Below are positions 1,664-42,154 of a stretch of DNA of 64,000 nt, piece by piece. The stretch is from Mobula hypostoma (taxonomy: Eukaryota): assembly GCF_963921235.1 (NCBI RefSeq), contig NC_086097.1:22632001-22696000 (forward strand), read 5' to 3'. The notes under the pieces were generated by a model, which saw only the letters and a list, made by a program, of their open reading frames with translations, ran no database searches and was not told where the DNA came from. The number at the start of each line of letters is the position of its first letter. The stretch's first letter is position 1. The position numbers were made by a program, and so were the translations under genes.

Positions 1664-2188
1664 CTTTTTTCTTTTCAAATCTTTTTATTATTATTATTCA
1701 AAAAAAACACGAATGCATCGAAGTAAGCAACACTTACAATGTCTCAAGAAGAAAAAATTATGTTAAAGATTGAAAAAATTTTTGTGATAATAAAAAGCCC
1801 TACTAAGCAGAAAAGTGGAAAAAAAAACCATTAGGTGTACAACCCCGGAGCCATGTGTCATACAAAAAGCTTCTAAAGATAAACATCAAACTGCCATCAA
1901 GAAAAAAAAATACCAGAAATTTACAATTAGATCGTGGAGAAAATTTATCAATTAACTCAAATGATAATAACGAGCAAATGAATCCCATCTTTTCTGAAAA
2001 TCAAATAAAGGTTCAAAGGCTCGACTTCTAATTTTCTCCAAACTAAGACATAACATCACTTGAGAGAACCATCGTGACAAAGTGGGAGCTGATGTATCCT
2101 TCCACTTCAACAAAATGGCCCTCCTGGCAATCAGTGTAACAAATGTAATAACATGTTGGTCAGACACATGGATATTTTTGCAACTCAT
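1664..2188 (-). mobile_element. L1-type LINE 3' end
   Basis: Minus ORF 1952-2188 LIARRAILLKWK..APTLSRW...LSLEKIR...FQKRW resembles fish L1 ORF2 C-terminus; AATAAA and A-rich tail on the minus strand at about 1664-1700. Confidence 0.8.
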
Positions 2189-2199
2189 ACAGTATTCTG

Positions 2200-2739
2200 A
2201 AGGGAGAAGGTGAGCATCCAGTAGTCATGGTACATACTGACACCAATCACAGAGGTAGGAAAAGGAAGGAAGTTCAGAAGTGGGAATTGAGGGAGCATGG
2301 TGGAAAGTTGAAAAGCAGGACCACAGGGTAGCAATCTCTGGTTTGCTGCCTGTGCCGCACGCCTATGAGGGTGAGAATAGGATGATTTAGAGATGAATGC
2401 ATGGCTGAGGAACTGTTGCAGGGGGCAGAACTTCAGATTTTTGATTCATTGGGATCTCTTTTGGGAAAGATATGATCTGTACAAAAAGGATAGGTTACAC
2501 CTGAACCCGAGAGAGACTGATATCCTTTCGGGCAGGTTTGCTCGAACTGTTGGGGAGGGTTTAAACTAATTTTGCAGGGGAATGGGAACCAGAGTGGTAG
2601 GGCTGAGGATGGGGGAGGTAGTATACAAGCAGGGGCAGTGTGTAGTGAGACTGTCAGTAAGGACAGGCAGATGATAGGGCAAAATTACAGTCACTTAGAT
2701 GTTTCAGTGTAAAAAAGGGTCAAAGTCAAAAAGGGTGGC
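2200..2739 (+). mobile_element. CR1 element A: ORF1 SGNH/esterase C-terminal part; resumes at 5455-5494 (ORF2 start NTGLMVLYLNARS)
   Basis: Translates with frameshifts to ISGLLPVP..MNAWLRNCCRGQNFRFLIHWDLFW...DRLHLN..GEGLN*; the continuation aligns with the CR1 ORF2 start at 6881-6945. Confidence 0.75.
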
Positions 2740-5454
2740 CATTACAGAGACTTGGATGACTCAGGGGCAGAAATGGCTGCTGGGTGTGCCGGGCTTTAGG
2801 TGTTTCAAAAAGGACAGGGAATGAGGCAAAAGAGGTGGGGGAATGGCACTGCTAATCAGGGATAGTATCACAGCTGCAGAGAAGGAGGAAGTCATGGAGG
2901 GATTGTCTACTGTGTCATTGTGGGTGGAAGGCAGAAACAAGTAGGGGGCAATAACTCCACTGGGTGTTTTTTATAGACCCCCCAATAGTAACAGAGATAT
3001 TGAGGAGTGGATAGGGAAGCAGATTCTGGAACGGTGCAATAATAATAGGGTTGTTACAATGGGTGAGTTAAGCTTTCCTAGTATTGACTGGCATCTCCTT
3101 AGAGCAAGGAGTTTAGATGGGGTGGAGTTTGTTAGGTGTGTTCAGGAAGGTTTCTTGACGCAATATGTAGATAAGCTAACTAGACTTGATCTGGTATTGG
3201 GAAATGAACCTGGTCAGGTGTCAGATCTCTCAGTGAGAGAGCATTTTGTAGGTAGTGATCACAACTCTATCTTCTTTACCATAGCGCTGAAGAGCAATAG
3301 GAACAGACAACTTGGGGAAACATTTAATTGGGGTAGGGGGAAATATGATGCTATTAGGCAGGAACTGGGGAACAAAAATTGGGAGCAGGTATTCTCAGTG
3401 AAATGCATGGCAGAAATATAGCAAATATTCAGGGAACATTTGCATGGCATTCTGCATAGGTATGTTCCATTGGGGCAGGGAAAGGATGGTAGGGTAAAAG
3501 AACCATGGTGTACAAAGGATGTAGAAAACCTAGTTGAGAAGAAAAGAAAAGCTTATGAAAGGTTCAAGAAACTGTTCAAGGTACTGTTAGGGCTCTAGAA
3601 AATTACAAGGGTACCAGGAAGGAGCTCAAGAATGAAATTAGGAGAGCTAAAAGGAGCCATGAGAAGGCCTTGGTGAGCAGTATTAAGGAAAACTCCAAGG
3701 CATTCTACAAGTATGTGAAGAGCAAGATGATGAGCCATGTGAGAATAGGACCAATCAGGAGTGAGAGTGGAAACATGTGCTTGGAGCCAGAAGAGGTAGC
3801 GGAGGTACTTAATGAATACTTTGCTTCAGTATTCAACAGTGAAAAGGATCTTAAAAATTGTGGGGATGAAAGGCATTAAGAAAGAGGATGTGCTGGAGCT
3901 TTTGAAAGGTATTAAGTTTGATAAGTCGCCAGGACCAGACGAGATATACCCCAGGCTACGGTGGGAAGTGAGGGAGGAGATTGCTGAGCCTCTAGTGATG
4001 ATCTTTGCATCATTAATAGGGATGGGAGAAGTACCAGAGAATCGGAAGGTTGCAAACATTGTTCCCTTGTTCAAGAAAGGGAGTAGAGATAACCCAGGAA
4101 ATTATAGACCAGTGAGTGTTATTTCAGTGTTGAGCATGTTGTTGGAGAAGATCCTGAGAAGCAGGATTTATGCACATAAGGAGAGACATAAACTGATTAG
4201 GGATAGTCTGCATGGCTTTGTCAAGGGCAGGTTGTGCTTTATGAGCCTGATTGAATTCTTGAGGATGTAACAAAACACATTGATGAAGGTAGAGCAGTGG
4301 ATGTAGTGTATATGGATTTCAATAAGGCATTTGATAAGGTTCCCCATCCGAGGCTCATTCAGAAAGTAATGAGGCATGGGATGCAAGGAGACCTTGCTTT
4401 TTGGATCCAGAATTGGCTTGTCCACAGAAGGCAAGGGGTAGTTGTTCGTATTCTGCATGGAGGTCGGTGACCAGTGGTGTTCTGCCGGGATCTGTTCTGG
4501 GACCCCTCTTGATGATTTTTATAAATGACCTGGATGAGGAAGTACAAGGGTGGGTTAGTAAGTCTGTCGATGACATAAAAGCTGGGGATGTCGAGGATAG
4601 TCTGGAGGGTTGTCAGAGGTTACAGCAGGACATCGATAGGATGCAGAAGTGATTGGTGGAGTTCAACCCAGATAAGTGTGAGGTGGTTCATTTTGGTACA
4701 TCAAATTTGAAGGCAGGATATAATATTAATGGTAAGACTCTCGGCAGTGTGGTGGATCAGTGAGATCTTGGGGTCCAAGTCTATAGGACACTCATAGCTG
4801 CTACGCAGGTTGACAGCATTATCAACAAGGCATATGGTATATTGGCCTTCATCAACCATGGGATTGAGTTCAAGAGCCGTGAGGTAATGCTACAGCTATA
4901 TAAGACCTTAGTTAGATCTCATTTGGAGAACTGTGTTCAGTCTGGTCACCTCATTACAGAAATGATGTGATACTGTAGAGAGTGCAAAGGAGATTTACAA
5001 GGATGTTGCCTGGATTGGGGAGCATGCTTTTTGAGAATAGGTTGAGTGAACTTGGCCTTTTCTCCTTGGAATGATGGAGGATGAGAGGTGACCTGATAGA
5101 GGTGTATAAGATGATGAGAGGCATTGATTGTGTGGATAGCCAGAGGATTTTTCCCAGGGCTAAAGTGGCTAACATGAGGGGGCATAGTTTTAAGGTGCTC
5201 GGAAGTACGTACAAGGGGGATGTCAGAGGTAAGTTTTTCACACACATAGAGTGGTGGGTGCGAGGAATGCACTGCCAGCAAAGGTCGTGGAGGTGGACAC
5301 AACAGAGTCTTTTAAGAGACTCTTAGAAAGGTACATGGAGCTAAGAAAAATAGAGGGCTATATGTCAGGGAAATTCTAGGCAGTTTCATGGTCGGCATGA
5401 CATTGTGGGCTGAAGGGCCTGCAATGTGCTGTAGATTTCTATGTTTCTATGTTT
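2735..5454 (+). mobile_element. CR1 element B, 5'-truncated ORF2 (AP endonuclease and RT), with stops and frameshifts
   Basis: VAITETW, LDLVLGNEPG, GSDHNSI, KSPGPD, GNYRPVS, DVVYMDF, SGVLPGSVLGP motifs; (TTTCTATG)n tail ending at 5454. Confidence 0.95.
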
Positions 5455-5494
5455 AATACAGGACTGATGGTGTTATATTTGAATGCACGCAGTA

Positions 5495-6618
5495 CAGTTG
5501 ATGTCAGAAGTTTACATACACCTTAGCCAAATACATTTAAACTCAGTTTTTCACAATTCCTGACATTTAATCCTAGAAAACATTCCCTGTCTTAGGTCAG
5601 TTTGGATCACTACTTTATTTTAAGAACGTGAAATGTCAGAATTATAGTAGAGAGAATGATTTATTTCAGCTTTTATTTCTTTCATCACTTTCCCAGTGGG
5701 TCAGAAGATTACATACACTTTGTTAGTATTTGGTAGCGTTGCCTTTAAGTTGTTTAACTTGGGTCAAACGTTTTGGGTAGCCTTCCACAAGCTTCTCACA
5801 GTAGGTTGCTGGAATTTTGTTCCATTCCTCCAGACAGAACCGGTGTAACTGAGTCAGGTTTGTAGGCCTCCTTGCTCGCACACACTTTTGCAGTTCTGCC
5901 CACAAATTTTCTATCGGATTGAGGTCAGAAAATGATGTCAAGTCTGGTTCATCCTTGGGAGCAATTTCCAAATGCCTGAAGGTACCACGTTCATCTGTAC
6001 AAATAATAGTACATCATATAAACACCATGGGACCACGCAGCCGTCATACCACTCAGGAAGGAGACGCATTCTGTCTGCTAGAGATGAACGTACTTTCGCG
6101 CGAAAAATGCAAATCAATCCCAGAACAACAGCAAGGGACCTTGTGAAGATGCTGGAGGAAACAGGTAGACAAGTATCTATATCCACAGTAAAACGAGTCC
6201 TATATCGACATAACCTGAAAGGCTGCTCAGCAAGAAAGAAGCCACTGCTCCAAAACCACCATAAAAAAGCCAGACTACAGTTTGCAAGTGCACATGGGGA
6301 CGCAGATCTTACTTTTTGGAGAAATGTCCTTTGGTCTGATGAAACAAAAATTGAACTATTTGGCTATAATGACCATCATTATGTTTGGAGGAAAAAGGGT
6401 GAGGCTTGCAAACCGAAGAACACCATCCCAACCGTAAAGCATGGGGGTGGCAGCATCATGTTGTGGGGGCTGCTTTGCTGCAGGAGGTACTGGTGCACTT
6501 CACAAAATAGATGGCATCATGAGGAAAGAAAATTATGTGGATATATTGAAGCAACATCTCAAGACGTCAGCCAGGAAGTTAAAGCTCGGTCGCAAATGGG
6601 TCTTCCAAATGGATAATG
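5495..6618. mobile_element. Rearranged Sleeping Beauty-family Tc1 transposon (pseudogenised)
   Basis: TA at 5493-5494 then CAGTTGATGTCAGAAGTTTACATACAC; inner DR at 5692-5719; minus-strand DLNPIENLWAEL...KGNATKY* at 5723-5928; plus-strand KSGSSLGAISK...WSDETK...VFQMDN at 5939-6618 with two frameshifts. Confidence 0.95.
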
Positions 6619-6620
6619 GC

Positions 6621-6710
6621 TAGGGTTGCCAACTTTCTCACTCCCAAATAAGGAATAAAAGTAGCAGTCAAATACGGTAAACTTGTGTTTACCCCGAGAA
6701 AGACTACCTG
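6621..6710. mobile_element. Single terminus of a probable hAT-type DNA transposon
   Basis: Begins TAGGGTTGCCAAC exactly where Tc1 homology stops; no partner end seen. Confidence 0.5.
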
Positions 6711-6711
6711 C

Positions 6712-6880
6712 AGAAAGTTCTTAAGATTTGGGGGCCCATACCAAAGTTCCTCAACCGTCTGAGGTGAAAGGAGCGCTGTTCTGACTTTTTCACCACACAG
6801 CTGGTGTGTACAGACCACATGAGGTCCTTGGTGATGTTTATGCCGAGGAACTTAAAGCTGTTCCCCCTCTCAGCCCCAGA
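6712..6880 (-). mobile_element. Rex-Babar-type LINE internal fragment
   Basis: Close match to 24795-24961 in this window; encodes FKFLG..IT.DL.W on the minus strand. Confidence 0.8.
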
Positions 6881-9103
6881 TTCAAATTCAGAAGGGGAAA
6901 GAATGCAGGACCGAAAGTGCTGTATTTAAACGGACATAGCATTCGGAATAAGGTGGACAAACTTGTGGCACATTTAGAGACTGGTCGGTTTGACATTGAG
7001 GGCATCACTGAATCGCAGCTGAAAGAAGGCCATAGTTGGGAGCTTATCATCAAAGGATGTACTTTATATCGAAAGGACAGGCAGGAAGGCATGGGCAGTG
7101 GTGTGGTTCTGTTGGTAAGAGATGGAATTACATTTTTAGAAAGAGATGACATAGGGACAGAGAATGTTGAATCTCTGTGGGTTGAGTTAAGAAATTACAA
7201 GGGTAAAAAATGTTATGGGAATCATATATAGTCTCCAAATAGTAACCAAGAAGTGGCGTTGAGATTGCACAGGTAGCTGAAAAGGCATGTAATAAGGGTC
7301 ATGACACAATTGTAATGGCGGACTTCAATAGGTAAGAGGATTGGGAAAATCAGGTTGGTATTGGATTGCTGGAGACGGAATTTGTTGAATGCTACGAAAT
7401 GGGTTTTTAAAGCAGCTTGTGTTGAGCCTACTCAGGGAATGGCTATCTTAGCTTGGGTGTTGTGTAATAACCCAGATCTTAATAGCGGGCTTAATGTAAT
7501 GGAGTCAGTGATCATAATATGATTGAATTCATACTGCAATTTGAGAGGGTGAAGCATAAGTCACATGTATCAGTATCGCAATAGAATAAAGAGAATTACA
7601 GAGGCACGAGACAGGAGCTTGCCCAGGTGGATTGGAGGAGGATACTGGCGGGAATGATGGCAGAGCAGAGATGGCTGAAGTTCCTTGGAATATTTCACAA
7701 GGTGCAGGATAGGTTTGTCTCACAGAGAAAAAAAAAATCCCAAATGGCAAGTGTAGGCAACCGTGGCTGACAAAGGAAATTAAGGATTGCATAAAAGCCA
7801 AGGAAAGGGCATATGAGGTAGCAAAAGTGAGTGGGAAGTTGGATAATTGGGAAGCTTTTAAATTCCAACAAAAGGCAACTAAAAAAAGCTGTAAGGTGGG
7901 AAAATATGAAATATGAGGGCAGACTAGCCAATAATAAGAATACCAAAATTTTTTTCAGTTATATAAAGAGTAAAAGGGAGTTGAGAGTTGATATTGGACC
8001 ACTGGAAAATGATGCTGGTGAGGTAGTAATAGGGGACAAAGAAATGGCAGATGAACTTAATGGGAACTTTGCATTTATCTTCACTGTGGAAGACACCAGT
8101 AGTGTGCCAGTGGTCTCTGAGTGTCAGGGAGCAGGAGTGAGTGCCTTTGCTATTACAAAGGAAAATGTGCGAGGCAAACTCAAAGGTCTTAAGGTGGATA
8201 AGTCACCTGGACCATATAGACTACATCCCAGAATCTTAAGAGAGGTTGCTGAAGAGATAACGGATGCTTTGGTCATGATCTTTCAATAATCACTTGATTC
8301 TGGCATAGTCCCGGAGGACTGGAAGATTGAAAATGTCACTCCACTCTTTAAAAAGGGAGGAAGGCAAAAGAGATTAAATTATATGCTAGTTAGTCTAACC
8401 TCTGTGGTTGGGAAAGTGTTGTAGTCTATTATTAAAGATGAGGTTTTGAGGATCTTGGAGAATAATGACAAAGTATGTCAAAGTCAGTATAGTTACTGTG
8501 AAGGGAAATCTTGCCTGACAAATCTGTTAGAGCTATTCTAGGAAGTAACAAGCAGATTGGACAAAGGAGAGATAGTGGATGTCATTTACTTGGATTTTCA
8601 GAAGGCATTTGATAAGGTACCTCACATGATGCTGCTTAACAAGGTAAAATCCTATGGCATTACAGGAAAGATATTGGCATGGATAGAGGAATGGCTGAGA
8701 GGCAGGAGGCAGTGAGTGGGAATAAAGGAGGCCCTTTTTGGTTGGCTGCCAGTGACAAGTGGTGTTCCTCGGGGATCAGTATTGGGACTGTTACTTTTCA
8801 CATTGTTTGACAATGATTTAGTTAATGGAATTAATGGCTTTGTGGTGAAGTTTATGGATGATACGAAGATAGGTGGAGGGGTAGGTAGTGCTGAGGAAGC
8901 AGTGCGATTGTAGCAGGTCTTGGACAAATTGGAAAAATGGGCAAAAAAGTGGTTTATGGAATACAGAGGAAATGTACGATAAAGCATTTTGGTAAAATAA
9001 ACATTAGTGCCGACTATTATCTAAATGGGGAGGAGGTTCAAACATCAGAGATGCAGAAGGACTTAGGAGTCCTCGTGCAAGACTGCCAGAAGGTTGATTT
9101 ACA
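6881..9103 (+). mobile_element. CR1 element C: ORF2 (endonuclease and RT), 3' end missing
   Basis: KVLYLN..SIRNK, ESLWVEL, KSPGP..LHPRIL, TSGVPRGSVLG, KFMDDTK motifs; multiple stops. Confidence 0.93.
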
Positions 9104-9394
9104 GGAATCAGATAATGAATCTGATTCTTCTTCTGAGAAACTGCATGGGCTGTGCTTATTTTAAGGTATCATTATTTTATGTAAAGCATTTATTAATCTT
9201 CTATTTGTTTGCAAGCCTGGTCTAAACTTGTATTGTTTTTCAACATTACATCAGCAAAAGTCAGATTACCTGTTTGTGGGAACCTGCAAATGTGTAACTT
9301 GGTTGTTTCATTTCCAACAATAATGACCACCTTCCAAACCCTCGGAGCTTGTAGACACTTGTGGATATTCTGGGATGTCAGTAGGTACCATGTA

Positions 9395-9580
9395 CACTCA
9401 GTGGCCACTTGATCAGGTACAGGAGCAGAATTTGTTGTGGTCTTCTGCTGCTGTAGCCCATTCACTTAAAGATTTGACAAGTTGTGTATACACAGATGCT
9501 CTTCTGCACACTACTATTGTAAAACATGGTTATTTGAGTTACTGTTGTCTTCCTGTAAATTTGAGCAGATTTGGCCATGG
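9395..9580. mobile_element. Fragment of a non-autonomous Tc1-like element (same family as 31081-31583)
   Basis: TA + CACTCAGTGGCCACTT terminus; interior is the reverse complement of about 31380-31515. Confidence 0.7.
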
Positions 9581-10673
9581 GCTCTTGATTCACTTGGGTG
9601 AAAAGGTTATGAGGAGAAGGCATGAGAATGGGGTTGAGAGGGATAATAAATCAACCCTGAGCAAATGGTGGAGCAGACTCAATGGGCTGAATGGCCTATT
9701 TCTGCTCTTCTGTCTTATTGTCATACTTAAATTATTATATGCTTCAAAATTCATTCTTACTTAGTGGTATTAAGCTTGCCACAAAAGAACATCAATGTAC
9801 TTGGCAGTGCTTTCAAATTGAAATGGAATTTAGAAGCAGATATGACTACTGTACTGATGCTTCTGTGCAGCATGTCTCGGGCTGCTCATCTGGGATGAAC
9901 TCCTCGGCAGCTCTCTTTTACATAGGATTTCCCAACCACTGTGCCCAAAATAACTTGTTTGTTTAATTTCGTTCTGTGGGACTTTTAAATTTGCAGATGT
10001 CTTCTGCACAATGATATTACCAGGTTTACGAATCAGATTGATTTTAATTAGCGCCAAACAATTGACTTATTAGAAGGTGTCTGAGTCTATAGACTGCAAA
10101 GTAAGATGATCTGAAAGATGAACCACAGTTAATTTAAAAGATTAATTTTTAAGCAGTCACCTGCAACAGAGAGGACATGTGACCTGGCTTTGCCTGCAGC
10201 TTACTTGGGACTTTGTGAACATTGTCATACAATCAACCTATTTGTGAAATACAGTAATTTCATGAATTATACGTAATTGGGGTCATGAATTGTGTCTAAA
10301 TATAGCAAAGCATTTGTTTTTGCTTTTCATTATTGTGAATAAAAATAGCCAGAAAAGAACAATTGGTACACTATGTAAATTAAAATCCCATCGTTAGCAA
10401 AAAATTGAATTACTGTTTTTTAATGAAGTGTTAATTATATCAGCATTCAAAATCTCTCTGCAAATCAGTGTTTTTTTAATTTGTCACTGTAGTAAATTTG
10501 CGAAGGCTTAAGCATTTTTTACAAGCATGGAAAAAGGATTTTATAGATAAAATACAGCAAGGAAGAAGTACATGATTTTGAAATGGGTACTTAACCTAGT
10601 CTATCTAGAACTTGTTTTTATATAAGTAGTTTTTGCTGTATTTTTTATTTTTGAATGGCTGTTATAGACTTAG

Positions 10674-10754
10674 CATAGTGTTCACAACCTTTTTGATGTC
10701 ATGGACCAATACCATTAAGCAAGGGGTCCGTGGACCACAAGTTGGGAACCCCTG
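10674..10754. mobile_element. Short hAT/Charlie-like MITE
   Basis: Degenerate TIRs CATAGTGTTCACAAC ... GTTGGGAACCCCTG; no clear TSD. Confidence 0.5.
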
Positions 10755-11122
10755 GAATCAGAAGCTGATATTTAGAACTTTTTTAAATATTTAAATAAAT
10801 GGTTTATTTTAGAGGAATAATCTAACACAAGGGAGCACCATTTTAAAGTGATTGGAAGAAAGTATAGGGAGGGATATCTTCTCCAGAAAGTGGTGTGTGT
10901 GCGGAATGTCCTGCCAGGGGTGGTGGTAGATGCAGATACATTAGGAACATTCAAGAAGCTCTTAGATAGGGCCATGAATGGAGGGAGTGGTGAAATTAAT
11001 CTTACGTAGGTTAGAAGCTCAATACAACATCATGGGCTGAAGGGCCTGTACTCTGCTATTGCACCTTGATTTTGTTAAATCTAAGTTATATAATAGTCGG
11101 TTAATGGGCCAACTATTAATAG

Positions 11123-11425
11123 GTGCGTGGCCAAGTGGTTAAGGCGTCGATCTAGTGATCTGAAGGTAGCCAGTTCGAGCCTCAGCTGAGGCAGCGTGTT
11201 GTGTCCTTGAGCAAGACACTTAACCACACATTGCTCTGCGACGACACCGGTGCCAAGCTATATCGGCCCTTGTGCCCTTCCCTTGGACAACATCGGTGTT
11301 GTGGAGAGGGGAGACTCGCAGCATGGGCAACTGCTGGTCTTCCATACAACCTTGCCCAGGCCTGTGCCCTGGAAACCTTCCAAGGCACAAATCCATGGTC
11401 TCACGAGACCAACGGATACCTATAA
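11123..11425 (+). mobile_element. tRNA-derived SINE with CORE-like central motif (copy 1 of 3)
   Basis: A box TGGCCAAGTGG, B box AGTTCGAGCC, then GTGTCCTTGAGCAAGACACTTAACC; homologues at 44823 and 63655. Confidence 0.9.
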
Positions 11426-11631
11426 TAGACTTGTAAAATTATTCATGAATAAAGTCAATGAAGTGTTCTTTGACCTTTGATTATGAAACCTATGGACAAC
11501 TTTTCAATGGTGCTGACATTATTTTGGCTCTAGCCACCTTTGTATCCCTCAGATTTATCAACAGAAGGGTGCCAATTAATTAATTGGGTTACAGCTAATC
11601 TAGATTTTAATGATACTTAAAACTGTACTGG

Positions 11632-11975
11632 GCAGCAGAGTAGCATAGCATTTAGTTTAGTGCTTTACAATGCCAATAATCATAGTCCGTGTATATTTCC
11701 CAACTCTGTTTACAAGGAGCGGACGTGCTATGTTGGCACCAGAAGCATGGAAGCGTAATTCCGAACAGTGCCAGCTATAAGATCAGGGTCCAATTTCTGG
11801 GGATGGCTGTAAGGAGTTTGTATGTTCTCCCTGTGACTGTGTAGGTTTCTTTGAGGTGTTCCCATTTCCTTCCATCTTTCAAAGCTGTCTGGGTTAGTAG
11901 ATTAATTGATTAAATGGTGGCATGGGTGCATTGGGCCAGAAGGGCCTATCACCATGTTGTATCTCTAAATAAATG
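11632..11975 (+). mobile_element. V-domain (HE1-like) SINE, degraded
   Basis: GTAAGGAGTTTGTATGTTCTCCCTGTGACTGTGTAGGTTTC core; CR1-like tail GGGCCAGAAGGGCCT. Confidence 0.75.
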
Positions 11976-12251
11976 GTAGATGATGAAAATGTTGTTTCCA
12001 AAGCACATCTGTTCCTATCATTCAATACCCTAGAGAGTTTCTGCTCTACAAACCCATTGGCTAATGAGCTAAACTCCAGTCTGAATAATAGTCAAAGGAT
12101 ATGGAGGCATAGGGGTTAAGTTATTTGACTTTCGATCAGAAGATGTGCATTTCAATCCCAGCAGAGTAGCTGAGGAATTTGAACTCAAGTCTAAATGGCA
12201 CTGTCAGTTCTGGTGATTGTGCTGCTGAGATATATCCTAGGACATGCTAGT

Positions 12252-24319: not shown

Positions 24320-25392
24320 TGAATTGAATTGACTTTATTTCTTATGTCCTTCATATAGATGAGTAAAAATCTTTACGTTATGTCTCCATCGCAATGTGCA
24401 ATTTATAGTAATTTATAATAAGCAGTATGTACAACAGAACAGTCAACATAACATAGAAATACAATTGTATCAGCGTGAATTAATCAGTCTGATGGCCTTG
24501 TGGAAGAAGCTGTCCTGGAGACTGTTGGTCCTGGCTTTAATGCTGCAGTACCATTTCCTGGATGGTACCAGCTGGAACAGTTTGTGGTTGGGATGACTCA
24601 AGTCCCCAATGACCCTTCAGGCCCTTTTTATACACCTGTCCTTGTAAATGGCCTGAATAGTGGGACGTTCAAATCTACAGATGCACCAGGCTGTCTGCAC
24701 CACCCTTTGCAAAGTCCTATGATTGAGGGAAGTACAGTTCCCATACCAGGCAGTGATGCAGCCAGTCAGGATGCTCTCAATTGCGCCCCTGTAGAAAGTT
24801 CTTAGGGTTTGGGGGACCATACCAAACTTCTTCAACCGTCTGAGGTGAAAGAGGCACTATTGTGCCTTTTTCACCACACAGCCGCATGTACAGGCCACGT
24901 GAGATCCTTGGTGACGTGTATGCCAAGGAACTTAAAGCTGTTCACCCTCTCAAACCCAGATCCCTTGATGTCAATAGGGGTTAGCCTATCTCCATACCTC
25001 CTGTAGTCCACCAGTTCCTTTCTTTTTGCAGCATTGAGGGTTAGGTTGTTTTCTTAACACCTCTGTGGCAGGGTGATGACTTCTTCTCTGTAGGCTGCCT
25101 CATTATTATTTGAGATTAGGCCAATCAGTGTAGTGTCGTCAGTAAATTTAATTAGCAGATTGGAGCTGTGGGCGATGACACAGTCATGGGTATACAGAGA
25201 GTAAAGGAGGGGGTTTAGGACACAGCCCTGGGGACACCTGTCTTGAGGGTCAGAGGGGCAGAGGTGAGGGAGCCCACCTGCTGGCAATCTGACAGAAAAT
25301 TCAGGATCCAGGCACACAAGGCAGAGTGAAGACCGAGGTCTCTGAGCTTCTTGCCGAGCCTGGAGGGAATTATGGTGTTGAATGCTGAACTG
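24320..25392 (-). mobile_element. Rex-Babar-type LINE 3' half
   Basis: [58 protein letters not shown]; (CAATT)n tail. Confidence 0.92.
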
Positions 25393-35415: not shown

Positions 35416-36414
35416 AAGAATACAAAGAATACATGGCAAAGTCTCTACTTTCTGAAGATTTTATGCAGATATTGCATATCTGATTTGGCATATCATCTAA
35501 AATTTTAACAAACTTCCATAAATGCACGGAGGAGATTATCCTGACTGTTGCATCATGGTCTGGTGTGGAAACGCGAATGTCCTTGAAAGGAAAAGCCTAC
35601 AAAAAGTCAAACAACAGGAATTCTGCAGATGCTGTTGCCTACAAAAAGTGTTGGATACAGCTCAGTTCCATCACAGGAAGTAAACTCTCCCCCTCATTGA
35701 GCACATCCACCATGCTCTCTACTTGCTACTGCCATCAGGAAGGAGGTACAGGAGCCTCAGGGACCCACACACCACCAGGTTCAGGAACACTTATTACCCT
35801 TCAACCATCAGGCTCCTGAACCAGTGTGGATAACTTCACTCACCTCAACTCCAAACTAAATCCACAAACTGGACTCACTTTCAAGGACTTCACAAGTCAT
35901 ATTCTCAGTATTATTTATTTATTTGTTTCACTTTGTACTTGCACAATTTGTGTAGTTTTTCATTGGCTCTATTGTATTTCTATTGTGAATGCCTGCAAGA
36001 AAACAAATCTCTAGGTAGTATATGGTGACAGCTATGCTCGTTGATAATAAACTTAATTTTAATTTTAAACTTTGATTTGCTTTCACTCCAGTCCTTGGGT
36101 GGCTGATGAGGCCTGTTGGACAAATGGAGATGACAGTTTTTACCAATAATGCTGCAAAATTTCCTCAAGAAGCGAAAAGATGTTTATTATCCACTTTATT
36201 TTCTGAGGTTGCCTCAATGGATTTTACTGTGTAGATAAGCCTGCCAATCATTTTGCAAGATCTATTGGGTTAAAAATTATTTCAAGTAGCACACCAGAGG
36301 AGGTTAATCAAACACCTAACCTCTAAAGAGTATTGTGTACTTAGTGTTCAGTTCTCATCGGCCATCTGCTTTTCTCAAGAAGGCACTTGACATGTAGGGT
36401 AACAAAAGAATATA

Positions 36415-37259
36415 CAGGTGCACTTTCCTTTATCCAAAATTCTGAAATCCAAAAAGCTCCAAAATCCGAAGTTTTTTCCGCCAACAGCTGATGTCACTCA
36501 GGTGCGATGTGGCAGCACTAGCAGAGGCCGCCAGACGTTGGTTGTGGCTCGGCGCTCGTACTGGTTACACGTGCATTTGCTGTTTGCTGATATTTTGTGT
36601 TCACTGTTGACTTTGTGTTTAATTTCACTGTGAAAATGTCAAAAAGAGCTGCGGATACCCCTATGGGTATCAGCGAGGAAAAGAGAAGGAAGCATATACC
36701 ATTATCAATAATGCAGAAAGTAGAGTTATTGCAGAAGCTTGATTGTGGTGTGCGATGTCTTACTGAAGAAAATAGTGTCGGAACTACCACTGAATATGAT
36801 TTAAATAAACAGAAAGATAAGTTACTGAAGTTTTATAGTGAGAGTGACAGTGACATTGACATTCTACATTTATTCCAATAAGTCATTTACCATGTGTTTG
36901 ATTCGGTTCATTTGAAGCCGTATATTTTTATGTTTTATTGAATGTTTTTGTTGAAAATAAAATTTCTTCTTGTCATTATTCCCTAAACAATACAGTATAA
37001 CAACTATTTACATAGCATTTACATTGTATTAGGTATTATAAGTAATCCAGAGATGATTTAAAGTATACGGGAGGATGTGCGTAGGGTTGGTGTGCCGCCG
37101 GGTCCTAAAGTCCACCCGCACTGAGACCGGTTAAATAAGGGACTTGAGCATATGTGTTTTTTTGGTTTGGGGGGGTGGGGGGTGGTCTGAAATCCGAAAA
37201 ATTCTGAATTCCGAAATGCAACTGGCCCCAAGGATTTCGGATAAGGGATTGTGGACCTG
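36415..37259 (+). mobile_element. Internally deleted pogo/Tigger (Tigger4/Zombi-like) transposon
   Basis: TA on both sides; TIRs CAGGTGCACTTTCCTTTATCC / GGATAAGGGATTGTGGACCTG; HTH-psq N-terminus MSKRAADTPMG...QKVELLQKLD...YDLNKQKDKLLKFY at 36636-36850. Confidence 0.9.
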
Positions 37260-37694
37260 TACTTCCCATAGGGACAATACAGCGAAGGTTCAGCAGATTA
37301 ATTCTGCATGTGAAAAGACCATAAAGTATAGAAGCAGAATTAGGCCACTTGGCCCGTCAAGTTTTCGCCACAGAGGATGAAGTATGTATTCACTAGAACA
37401 TAAAAGATTGATAGAGGATATAGCTGACGCTCCCAAAATTATTACAAGACCAGATATACTGTATGTGGGGAGGATGTCTCCCCTGGCTGGGTTGTCTAGA
37501 ATGAGGGACTAAATTTTGCAGGTGTGAACAGCAAGGTAGAGGTGGAGGGAAAAGAGGAAGGGGAGTTGAATTTCTGATGAAGGAGAAAATTACAAAAATA
37601 GTCCAAAATGAAATTATTGAAGTATTGTCTGGTGAGGCTTTGTAGGTGAAGCTGGGAAGTAAGATGGTGTTGATCACCCTTGTTAGGATTCCAC

Positions 37695-37995
37695 AGTAGC
37701 ATAGTGATTAGTGCAATCACTTTGCAGTGCCAGTGATCACTGGCCAGGGTTCGATTCCCATCCTGCCTGTAAGAAGTTTGTACATTCTTCCCTCGACCGT
37801 GTGGGTTTCCTTCGGTTGCTTCAGCTTGCGCCCACATTTCAGCAATGTACAGTTAGGATTAGTGAGTTATGGGTGTGTTATGTTACTGCCGGACGAGTGG
37901 CTTCACTTCAGGGCACATTTCTCACACAATCCTTGGACTGTATTGGTCAATGATGCATTTCAGTGTGTGTTTCAATGTGCATGTGACAAATAAAT
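37695..37995 (+). mobile_element. V-domain SINE
   Basis: A box TAGCATAGTGA, B box GGTTCGATTCC, V core. Confidence 0.8.
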
Positions 37996-38019
37996 CCAAA
38001 CTTCGACTTTATCTTTACA

Positions 38020-39585
38020 ATAGGCCTGCTAACCATCAATGGGAATGAGAGGAACAGACTGTGCAGGCAGATTGTAGAAAGTAGCGAGAACAATAGGCTA
38101 TCACAGTAAGGAATTATAACTTTCTGAATGTAAACTGGAACTGTACAAGTGCAAAGCACTTAGATGGGTTGAAATTTGTTCAGGAAAGTTTTCTTAGGCA
38201 ATACGTAAAAGACTCTACTAGGGGGAGGGCAAAGTATGTCCTGCTCTCAGAAAATAGGATTGAACCAGTGACTGAGGTGTCGGCAGGGAGCAGTCTGGGT
38301 CCAATTGACCATTGTTTTATTAGTGTTAAAATTGTTACTGAAAGGGACAGGTCTAGTCCACAGGTTTATGTTTTAAATTGGGACAAGGCAAGTTTTGACG
38401 ATATTAGACAGAATCTTGTGAAAGTTGTTTGGAGTATTTGTTTGTGGTCAAATGGGGACATCCAGCAAGTGGGGTCTTTACAAATGAGATAATGAGAGTT
38501 TGCAGCGGCATCTCCCTGTTAGAAGGAAGGGTAGGGGTGACAGGAGCAGGGAACACTAGATTGTGAGGGGTTTTGGGGCTCTGGTTGGGAAAAAGGAGGC
38601 TGCAGACAGCTAGGCTCAAGTGAACCCCTGAAGATGTGTGTGGATGCAAGTGCATACTTAAGAAAGAAGTCATGAAGGCACGAGGGATCATGAGAAGGTG
38701 AAGGAGAATCCAAAGAGGTTTAATAAGTATATTAAAGGAAACAGAGTAACTAAGGAGAGAACAATGACTAAAGTGGACACTAATGTGTGGTTGTGCAGGA
38801 GATGGGCATGGTCCTCAATGAATGTTTCTCCTCTGTTTTACTATGGAGAAAGACAAAGCACTGGGAACTTGAGATAACTGATGGGGGTATTTGGGGATAT
38901 TCTGCATTTCAACAAAGAAGGTACTGGTCATCTCAAAATGCATGAAAATAAAACTCCAGGCCTTGACTGGATATATCTAAAAACAGTGCGGATAGGGAGA
39001 AGATACTGTGGGAGTCCTGGCTGAGATATATGCATCATCGGTAGTGAATGCAGAGAGTGTAGAGAAGTCTTATAAACATGTTGCTTGGACTTGAGGGACC
39101 AAAGTTACAGAGAGAGTCGAGTGGGCTTGGACTTTATTCAGTGGAGTGTTGGAGAATGAGGGCAGATCTAATTGAGGACTATAAAATCGTGAAGGACGGA
39201 GTGTCAGAGAATGATGGGTGATTTTATCGAGGACTATAAAGTCATGAGGGACGTAGATAGAGTGAATGCACAGTCCTTTCCCCAGGGTTGTGAGTCCAGA
39301 ACTAGAGGAAATAAGTTAAAGATGAGAGGGGAGGCATTAAATAGAAATCTGAGGGGCAACATTTTCACCCAGAAAATGGTCTATACATAAATAAGTTGCC
39401 AGAGGAAGTGGCTGAGGAAGGTATATTTGTTAATTTAAAAGATGCTTGGACAGATACGTGGCGAGGAAAGGTTGGGAGCAGTATCCACTAAGCACAAGCA
39501 CATAGGATTAGTCTAAATGGCAGTTTCCATTAGCGTCGATCTGTTAGCATGAAGGGTCTGTTTCTGTGCTGTATGACTTTATATG
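38020..39585 (+). mobile_element. Old, deleted CR1 ORF2 and 3' end
   Basis: FVQESFLRQYV, VLNWDKASFD, LGLYSVE..RMRADLI remnants. Confidence 0.75.
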
Positions 39586-40194
39586 ACTGTACCTCTTCCT
39601 ATAGATGCTGCCTGACCTGCTGCGTTCCACCAGCATTTTGTGTGTGATGCTCCTATGAGTCAGTTTACAGAGAATCTAACTGAAAACTGAAATGAGCAGA
39701 AATTTCTTTTCTCGGACTGTAATGGACCTGGGGAACTTGAAGCCACAAAGGACTCGAGAGACCAAATACTTTGACAGAGGAGAAAGATAAGTTTCCAGAC
39801 ACACAGGGAGTACAGGGAGAGAGAGGGAATGTGATATTGATGTAGGTGATCAATCACGGTGGTATTGAATGGCGGAGGAAGCTTGACAGTCCAAATGGTT
39901 ATTCCTGTCCTGATTTTCTATATTTTTATTGCTCATCACAAAAACTATCAGAGCCAAAGGAGGATCCAGAAATAGCTTTTAGGTTATGGTTAGGTTAAAT
40001 GAGTGATAAGAATGTAGAAAATGGAAAGAAAATCGGAGGTCATCTGCTTTGACAGAAGAAAATGAAGAGCAACGGTTTTTTTTAAATGGTGTGAGGCTGA
40101 AAGTTGTGAGTGTACATTTGGACCTAGCTATTCTTGTACAGGTGCCACTGAAGAGTAAAGTACATTTACTGCAGATTGAAGATTTAAAAGAAGA

Positions 40195-40502
40195 TTAGCT
40201 TTATTACCCATTTGTATAACAAAGCATACAGTGAAATGCTTCAAATCAAATCAGCAAGGATTGTGCTGGGGCAGCCGTTAAGTGTCACTACACTTACAGC
40301 ACCAACATAGCGTGACCACAACTCTTACTAACCCTGACCTACACTTCTTTGGAATGATGGAGGGAACTGGGGCACTCGGAAGAAATACATGCAGGCATGG
40401 GGACAATGTACCAACTCCTTACAGATGGTGGCGGAAATTGAACCCAGATCGATGATCGCTGGTGCTGTAAAACGATGCGCTAACCACTGTGCTACCATGC
40501 CT
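40195..40502 (-). mobile_element. V-domain SINE
   Basis: Minus-strand head GGCATGGTAGCACAGTGGTTAGC, B box GGTTCAATTTCC. Confidence 0.8.
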
Positions 40503-41296
40503 CTTGCAATTAAAAAGGCAAGTGATACACATTTTGGGTCTCACTACAGAAGGGCTTGAGAACACGAGATTCTGCAGATGCTGGGTATCCAGCGTAACAC
40601 GCAGAAAATGCTGGAAGAATTTAGCAGGTCAGGCAGAGGAATAAAGAGCCGAGATTTTGAGTTGAGACCCCTCATAGTGTTGCCTAACCTACGGAGTTCC
40701 TCCAGCATTTTATGAGTAATTGAAGCCTGTTCTAATTATAATTGAACACTGGGTGAGATTGCACTGGGAACATTGTGTGCACATCTCTTAACACAAGAAA
40801 GATAAGTTTATAAAAGAAAGAATGATGGAGAAGATTCACCAGAACAATTCTTGAGAAGGGGAATTTGTCAGCTGAAGAAATTGGGCTTATACACTTTTGA
40901 GTTTATCAGTATGAGCTGTGATTATATTAAACATTTGGAATTTGATAAAGCAAGTGCAGTGTTGATTTTCACCTAGCTGGGGTGTCTTAAATGAGTGTCA
41001 GAAAGAGGGATTAACCATTCAGGAAAGAGATAAGAAAAAAATTCTTTACACAAGACAGTGAGAATGCACAAGAATAAAATAAATACACTTATAGTTATTT
41101 TTTAAAAGTTGGATTACTGCAGCAAAATGGCATTCTGGTAGAAGAAGGATATAGATCATTTACAGATAGGGGCAAAGATGTGGCAGGTTGAGTTTAATCC
41201 AGGGAAGTATGAACTATTTGCACTTTAGGAGGTCAAATGGAAGGAGAAAGTATATAGTTAACGGCACTTAATAGCGCTGAAAGTACAGAGAGATCT

Positions 41297-41710
41297 TGGT
41301 ACAGAGGAGATGTCGGGTAAGTTTTTTGAAAATGCAAAGAGTGGTGAGTGCGTGGAATGAGTTGCTGGCGGTGGTGGTGGAGGCGGAAACAATAGGGTCT
41401 TCTAAGAGACTCCTGGATGGCTACATGGAGCTTAGAAAAATAGAGGGCTCACTCTTCCTTCAGTTAGTCCTGACGAAGGATCTCGGCCTGAAACGTCGAC
41501 TGCGCCTCTTCCTATAGATGCTGCCTGGCCTGCTGCGTTCACTAGCAACTTTGATGTGTGTTGCTTGAATTTTCAGCATCTGCAGAATTCCTGTTGTTTG
41601 GGCTATGGGTAAAGCCTAGGTAGTTCTAAGGTAGGGACATGTTCGGCACAGCTTTCTGGGCCGAAGGGCCTGTATTGTGCTGTAGGTTTTCTATGTTTCT
41701 ATTTTCTATA
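41297..41710 (+). mobile_element. CR1 3' end carrying a 150-bp Penelope-type insert (41450-41599)
   Basis: Matches 5210-5454; insert flanked by GGGCT at 41445-41449 and 41600-41604. Confidence 0.88.
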
Positions 41711-42154
41711 ATAATAGAGAAAATAAACATGAATTCTTGTGCGGGAGAGGGATTTGGGGGTTGGTGATCATGCCATTCTTTTCTTTCTTAGTTTCACGGC
41801 TACCTGGAGAATTGAAGAATTTCACAGTTGTATACTTTGATAATAAATGAACCTTTGAATTACAGTGGAATATTTATAATGTTGTTAGTTTCTTCAGCCA
41901 ATAGGGGTGGGACGTGGATATATATAAATATATAAAATAAGTAGTGCAAAAGTAGAAATTTTAAAAAGTGGTGTGGTAGTGTTCATGGATTCAATGTCCG
42001 TTCAGAAATCAGAAGGCAGAGGGAAAGATGCTGTTCCTGAATCGCTGAGTGTATACCTTCAGGCTCCTGTCCCTCCTTCCTGATGGTGGCAATGAGAACA
42101 AGGCATGTCCTGGGCGATGAGGGTCCTTAATGATGGATGCCATCATTTTGAAGT

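Follow-up and report, generated by a model that had tools for sequence, protein, structure and literature searches.

Sleeping Beauty (SB) donors with two right ends are probably weaker. The primary study on donors with two left or two right ends is Izsvak et al. 2002. A passage of PMC4505599, in which SB resembles Mos1 in being most active when a preferred end is present twice, supports the weakness of two-right donors just indirectly. The left and right ends of SB are not equivalent, and a half-DR enhancer in the left IR is useful, though not essential (passages of PMC5224488, PMC7827188, and bioRxiv 659086). The length of SB is given as 1638 nt in the relevant passage of PMC6362248. Rpmar49 of Rhodnius prolixus, as presented in the section of PMC4678618 drawn on here, has its 5' part replaced by 221 bp of its 3' part and occurs in 13 copies. 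A literature search outside most subscription papers and repeat databases found no report of a natural SB family with two right ends.

The locus described here lies in a window of 64 kb (the whole stretch of DNA that was analysed) and holds a right end and two opposed pieces of an SB-type transposase gene. The features in and around it are as follows, with element positions given on the reference described below.

3800 to 5457, plus strand: 3' part of a CR1-like LINE (RT region, 3' end, and short tandem tail), the upstream neighbour
5458 to 5494, plus strand: 37 nt of a second CR1-like endonuclease start (LMVLYLNARS), ending in the target TA at 5493-5494
5495 to 5722, minus strand: SB-type right IR/DR of 228 nt, with the outer DR at ~5495-5526 and the inner DR at ~5691-5722
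5723 to 5928, minus strand: transposase codons 274-340 and stop (reference 1206-1411), without internal stop, DLNPIE...ATKY*
5926 to 5940, plus strand: 5' UTR remnant of 15 nt, overlapping the minus arm by 3 nt and the ORF piece by 2 nt
5939 to 6620, plus strand: transposase codons 20-245 (reference 445-1126), with two frameshifts and without an in-frame start codon
6621 to 6706, plus strand: unrelated piece of 86 nt starting TAGGGTTGCCAAC, which begins at the cut without a spacer
6707 to 6881, minus strand: 3' fragment of a non-LTR retrotransposon ORF, 86% identical to 24788-24961
6882 to 8900, plus strand: another CR1-like LINE from its endonuclease start, recognised by its translations

The references L001 and L002 are full-length, TA-flanked SB elements obtained from a protein-seeded scan of metagenome contigs, and all element positions are given on L001. 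Both have 1639 nt and are 99% alike, and their left and right IRs are ~69% alike. The scan of metagenomes gave four loci among 112 candidate stretches; three of them, L001, L002, and the partial copy L003, are SB elements whose left end is normal, and the fourth (L004) was an unrelated chance match and was dropped. The same scan gave 0 of 82 in prokaryote genomes and 0 of 4 in viral contigs. Another Tc1-like element, full-length but unrelated, occupies L001 44-1610 and adjoins the SB copy with only TA between them; its terminal repeats measure 65 nt and are 95% alike.

The element starts with CAGTTG at 5495, directly after the TA at 5493-5494. On the minus strand, positions 5495-5928 align without gaps to reference 1639 to 1206, and 30 of the 434 positions carry substitutions. 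The terminal 228 nt matched the right IR/DR of L001 in 215 of 228 columns and the left one in 168 of 243, which bears out the preliminary description in placing the right IR, the one adjoining the stop codon, at 5495. The last transposase codons were read on the minus strand at 5723-5928, also as first described, and the translation of this piece matched the SB100X catalytic domain (PDB 5CR4) with an E-value of 5e-33. Residues ~20-245 follow on the plus strand from 5939, again as had been proposed; this piece showed 35 substitutions in 678 positions against reference 445-1126, frameshifts near 6013-6017 and 6470, and E-values of 8e-48 with 5CR4, 3e-25 with PDB 5UNK, and 5.6e-22 with the Pfam domain HTH_Tnp_Tc3_2. 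Both pieces were 93–94% identical to the full-length references at the DNA level, and the protein identity to the top 340-aa matches was 89%. Protein searches returned relatives including teleost entries and were uninformative on the joint. The DDE residues, D153, D244, and E279 in the usual numbering, were recognisable in the translation.

Protein, DNA, and end structure all identify the element as an SB-clade Tc1/DD34E IR/DR transposon. One end has the repeat of ~230 nt with outer and inner DR and the CAG at TA that mark SB-clade ends. A distal second end with its TA duplication was found nowhere within the 64 kb; as the copy is truncated, the missing second end does not lower its SB-clade membership. 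The copy is dead and cannot move, and 5495-6620 is a real, well-resolved rearranged fossil.

The joint between the two opposed pieces was seen at 5926-5940. The preliminary description had reported ~10 nt of filler at 5929-5938, but these bases are templated: 5926-5940 is an exact 15/15 copy of reference 261-275 from the 5' UTR on the plus strand, and the same 15 nt are exact in L001, L002, and L003. In the reference this stretch sits 33 nt inside the left inner DR. When the 10 nt were shuffled, a match of at least 15 nt was obtained in 8 of 20000 trials; random filler is thus ruled out by the exact UTR match and this control. The joint therefore consists of a strand switch (1206 to 261) at a 3-nt microhomology and then a 171-nt deletion, which takes the remaining UTR, the ATG, and codons 1-19, and it has no untemplated base. 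A minus-strand origin from the other hairpin arm was less complete, as the 12-nt match at reference 314-303 leaves one base unexplained. A new reading frame from a UTR ATG was likewise rejected, being out of frame and stopping after 15 codons. No transposon terminus, duplicated TA, or TA-CAG-TA footprint was present at the joint.

In the SB 5' UTR (L001 1876-1926), two perfectly matching 11-bp arms of an inverted repeat enclose a loop of 29 nt, and a third motif similar to this repeat sits at the start codon. The remnant at 5926-5940 covers one arm of the 11-bp stem. The reference UTR fold gave a z of −2.2, and 6 of 200 shuffles were equally good.

When the 64 kb were searched with the full reference, only the pieces described above and DR cross-matches came up. 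With this sensitive search, nothing above chance was found in the window for the left IR, positions 276-444, the gap 1127-1205, or a second right end. The left IR and the first 19 codons are thus absent from the window as first reported, and most of the UTR is absent too. No long inverted repeat of the window involves the SB element. The pieces (reference 445-1126 and 1206-1639) do not overlap, and the copy stops ~80 nt short, so there is no duplicated or inverted arm in the window. The claim that the left end is an inverted copy of the element's own right end is not borne out here, since no such arm is visible.

The surroundings form a pile of nested, cut elements. The LINE at 3800-5457 has stop-free RT-like stretches with a Pfam RVT_1 E-value of 7.7e-5, under the curated cut-off, and similar 3' ends were found at 41299-41705. 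The LINE pieces are putative CR1 elements, and CR1-like repeats such as those around the SB copy are typical of cartilaginous fishes. The TA had been placed cleanly inside a CR1; this is true on the left side alone, where 5458-5494 has the look of a CR1 endonuclease start and resembles 6902-6938, but its continuation was not found in the window. The LINE at 6882 was considered as the right flank and rejected, as it carries its own copy of the left-flank motif. The 86-nt piece at 6621-6706 is presumably one end of a hAT-type DNA transposon, judged by its first bases; a partner end was sought at up to 2 mismatches in the window and none was found beyond chance, so that only one end is present. 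The match of the fragment at 6707-6881, 24788-24961, adjoins an RVT_1-like stretch. Most of the LINE fragments that were translated between 3800 and 8900 are in plus orientation. GC skew was strongly positive (0.12–0.35) over runs of LINE fragments at 2000-12000 and 36000-42000 of the window.

The best reading of the locus is a local inversion in one SB copy that lost its left end, to which we assign a probability of roughly 0.43 (a judgement, not a computed value). An SB-clade element in minus orientation would have entered the TA with its right end leading, and this end is observed. The segment between UTR position 261 and roughly codon 245-272 would then have flipped in place, and the left joint of the flip would have been sealed at the 3-nt microhomology seen in the window. 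The 171-nt microhomology deletion may have been present earlier as an inherited deletion form or may have arisen in the same repair event. The native left end would have lain distally and was probably lost together with the right CR1 flank. Because the hAT-like end at 6621 stands exactly where the flipped piece stops and only ~80 nt are missing, aberrant transposition of this end may have caused the flip; the literature search found no report of hAT-driven adjacent inversions.

The pieces are near-perfect complements: reference 1639-1206 is followed by 261-275 and 445-1126, nothing occurs twice, and the gap is ~80 nt. In an element with two right ends, a random cut would fall within 80 nt of the overlap point in ~80/1195, or ~7%, of cases by simple arithmetic. 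The near-exact complementarity, with a cut so near the overlap, thus favours local inversion. The divergence of the two pieces was alike (30/434 vs 35/678, Fisher p 0.24, a test of low power), which is the expectation for one donor and again favours inversion. The enhancer in the left IR and the non-equivalence of the ends also disfavour amplification without a left end.

Several observations stand against local inversion. If 6620 was cut by an independent insertion, the probability that no discriminating sequence is left is 0.75 under inversion and 0.64 with two right ends, so the cut position hardly separates the models in that case. The equal lengths of the replaced and replacing stretches, given below, would be mere chance under inversion, and a fold-back within one family should likewise leave equally diverged pieces. 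In addition, the amplified rearranged mariner lineages in the passages of PMC4161770 and PMC4678618 are end replacements and not internal inversions. The reciprocal joint and native left end that an inversion would leave are absent within the window, where the distal part is lost.

A lesser but substantial chance is given to an amplified non-autonomous derivative with two right ends, of which this locus would be one copy. Its progenitor would have had positions 1-444 replaced by the inverted last 434 nt and 10 nt of UTR, through template switching in gap repair or through deletion between neighbouring opposed copies. The resulting element, with 1639 nt and 434-nt arms, would have moved in trans, inserted at the TA, and later been cut by insertion and deletion. 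An intact right end at the TA fits this derivative, and a young copy that carries two rearrangements is more readily understood if it inherited them. The TA shows just that the right end was once inserted by transposase. A normal minus-orientation element that was later flipped inside gives the same TA and right end, so the argument from the TA, on which the preliminary description had leaned, does not discriminate. With the far end lost at 6620, the window fits both a local flip and a family with two right ends.

The length comparison argues for the amplified derivative. Ahead of codon 20, window 5495-5938 was compared with L001 1613-2056, and 444 nt stand in for 444 nt (443 replaced by 444 on L002). 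A form with two right ends would therefore have the native length within one base. No mechanism for this equality was found. According to the passage of PMC5224488, SB transposes full-length substrates better than those with internal deletions. Published kin exist in Rpmar49 and Rpmar17 (section of PMC4678618) and, with the opposite replacement, in seven Drosophila sublineages (section of PMC4161770). The half-DR enhancer is called ‘not essential’ in the passages cited at the outset, but the same literature has SB needing the left-IR enhancer for efficient transposition, and the cut 80 nt before the overlap must be put down to chance. The right end and the joint were each seen just once in the window.

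The joint pattern also gave 0 matches in the metagenome (as a gapped pattern), viral, and prokaryote contigs, which is weak evidence against a family as these collections hardly sample the host. The plasmid collection gave no match. Among 24 sequencing runs, 0.26–0.40 of the words of 5400-6750 were shared and none of the runs reached 0.5; one reference alone gave a word share of 0.09–0.11 for exact words and 0.31 within one mismatch. The shares of the runs fit a related multi-copy family and give no evidence of a holder of the same locus.

It is unlikely that the locus is a one-off structure with two right ends that never moved, formed by fold-back of a resident copy or by a deletion fusing a minus and a plus copy. 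Microhomologies at both switches and the UTR hairpin at the joint fit template switching, and Rpmar49 is proposed, in the section of PMC4678618, to have arisen when a deletion joined neighbouring copies. The locus, full of nested and cut elements, offers a setting for such events. The pieces showed no difference in divergence (p 0.24, at low power), the near-complementarity is left unexplained, and the distal part that would reveal a fold-back or fusion is missing. That sequencing or assembly joined reads from different copies into a chimera is hardly credible even in a repeat-rich region, as the 15-nt templated piece and the 2–3-nt microhomologies are far shorter than what assemblers join on and the window is without N.

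The host appears to be a cartilaginous fish, and the survey of Jia et al. 2022 lists no SB in cartilaginous fishes in the parts of PMC9777934 used here. Together with the 93–94% identity to salmonid-type references, this suggests that the SB-clade copy reached its host by horizontal transfer. Some coding variants are common to eel, tarpon, and other teleost entries in the portion of the PMC9777934 supplement that was searched, and the joint motifs gave 0 matches in that portion. SB terminal repeats of up to 415 bp and a 3' repeat overlapping the ORF are given in Table 1 and section 3.3 of the same source. Such teleost entries, as far as this table and section describe them, could be unrecognised end-replacement forms.

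It is somewhat doubtful that, after horizontal transfer into a ray lineage, a non-autonomous SB family with two right ends, 434-nt arms, and exactly native length spread without the left-end enhancer. Such a family, if true, would contradict in nature the left-end dependence known from cell assays. It would suggest that IR/DR synapsis obeys a rule of length or spacing, and hairpin RNA directed at the transposase 3' end could arise from its arms. Amplification would mean that an SB-type transposase moved an enhancer-less substrate often enough for it to spread, which bears on IR/DR end pairing and vector design, and end-replacement lineages would extend from simple-IR mariners to IR/DR Tc1 elements. 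If the locus arose by a local flip, it would be a common case of transposon decay, and the little interest it has would lie in the well-resolved joint at a microhomology.

Compared with SB and salmonid-type (Tss1) elements, the copy has the same DNA sequence at 93–94% identity, the right IR/DR with two DRs, and the TA target; it differs in that the left IR/DR, most of the UTR, the ATG, and codons 1-19 are gone, the parts are opposed, and the ORF is cut at codon 245. The inversions produced by SB autointegration, as presented in the passage of PMC3952818, likewise give SB elements with internally inverted parts. Their joints consist of transposon ends with a duplicated TA, whereas the joint in the window is internal sequence with neither, so an autointegration product of this kind was rejected. 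The Galileo ‘2RT’ copies in the section of PMC3573991 are similar in that internal sequence was recruited into long inverted arms, giving extended TIRs; Galileo belongs to the P-superfamily and both of its arms were observed, and only one arm is seen here. The Drosophila MITE sublineages Dromar7, 11, 28, and 36 share a strand switch with a deletion giving long arms (section of PMC4161770). In them the 5' part replaces the 3' part, and amplification was demonstrated. Rpmar49 and Rpmar17, in the section of PMC4678618, are simple-IR mariners that occur in many copies and of which both ends have been seen, whereas the element here is an IR/DR Tc1 transposon with one end seen. They share with 5495-6620 the terminal 3' part with transposase homology, inverted ahead of the remaining ORF.
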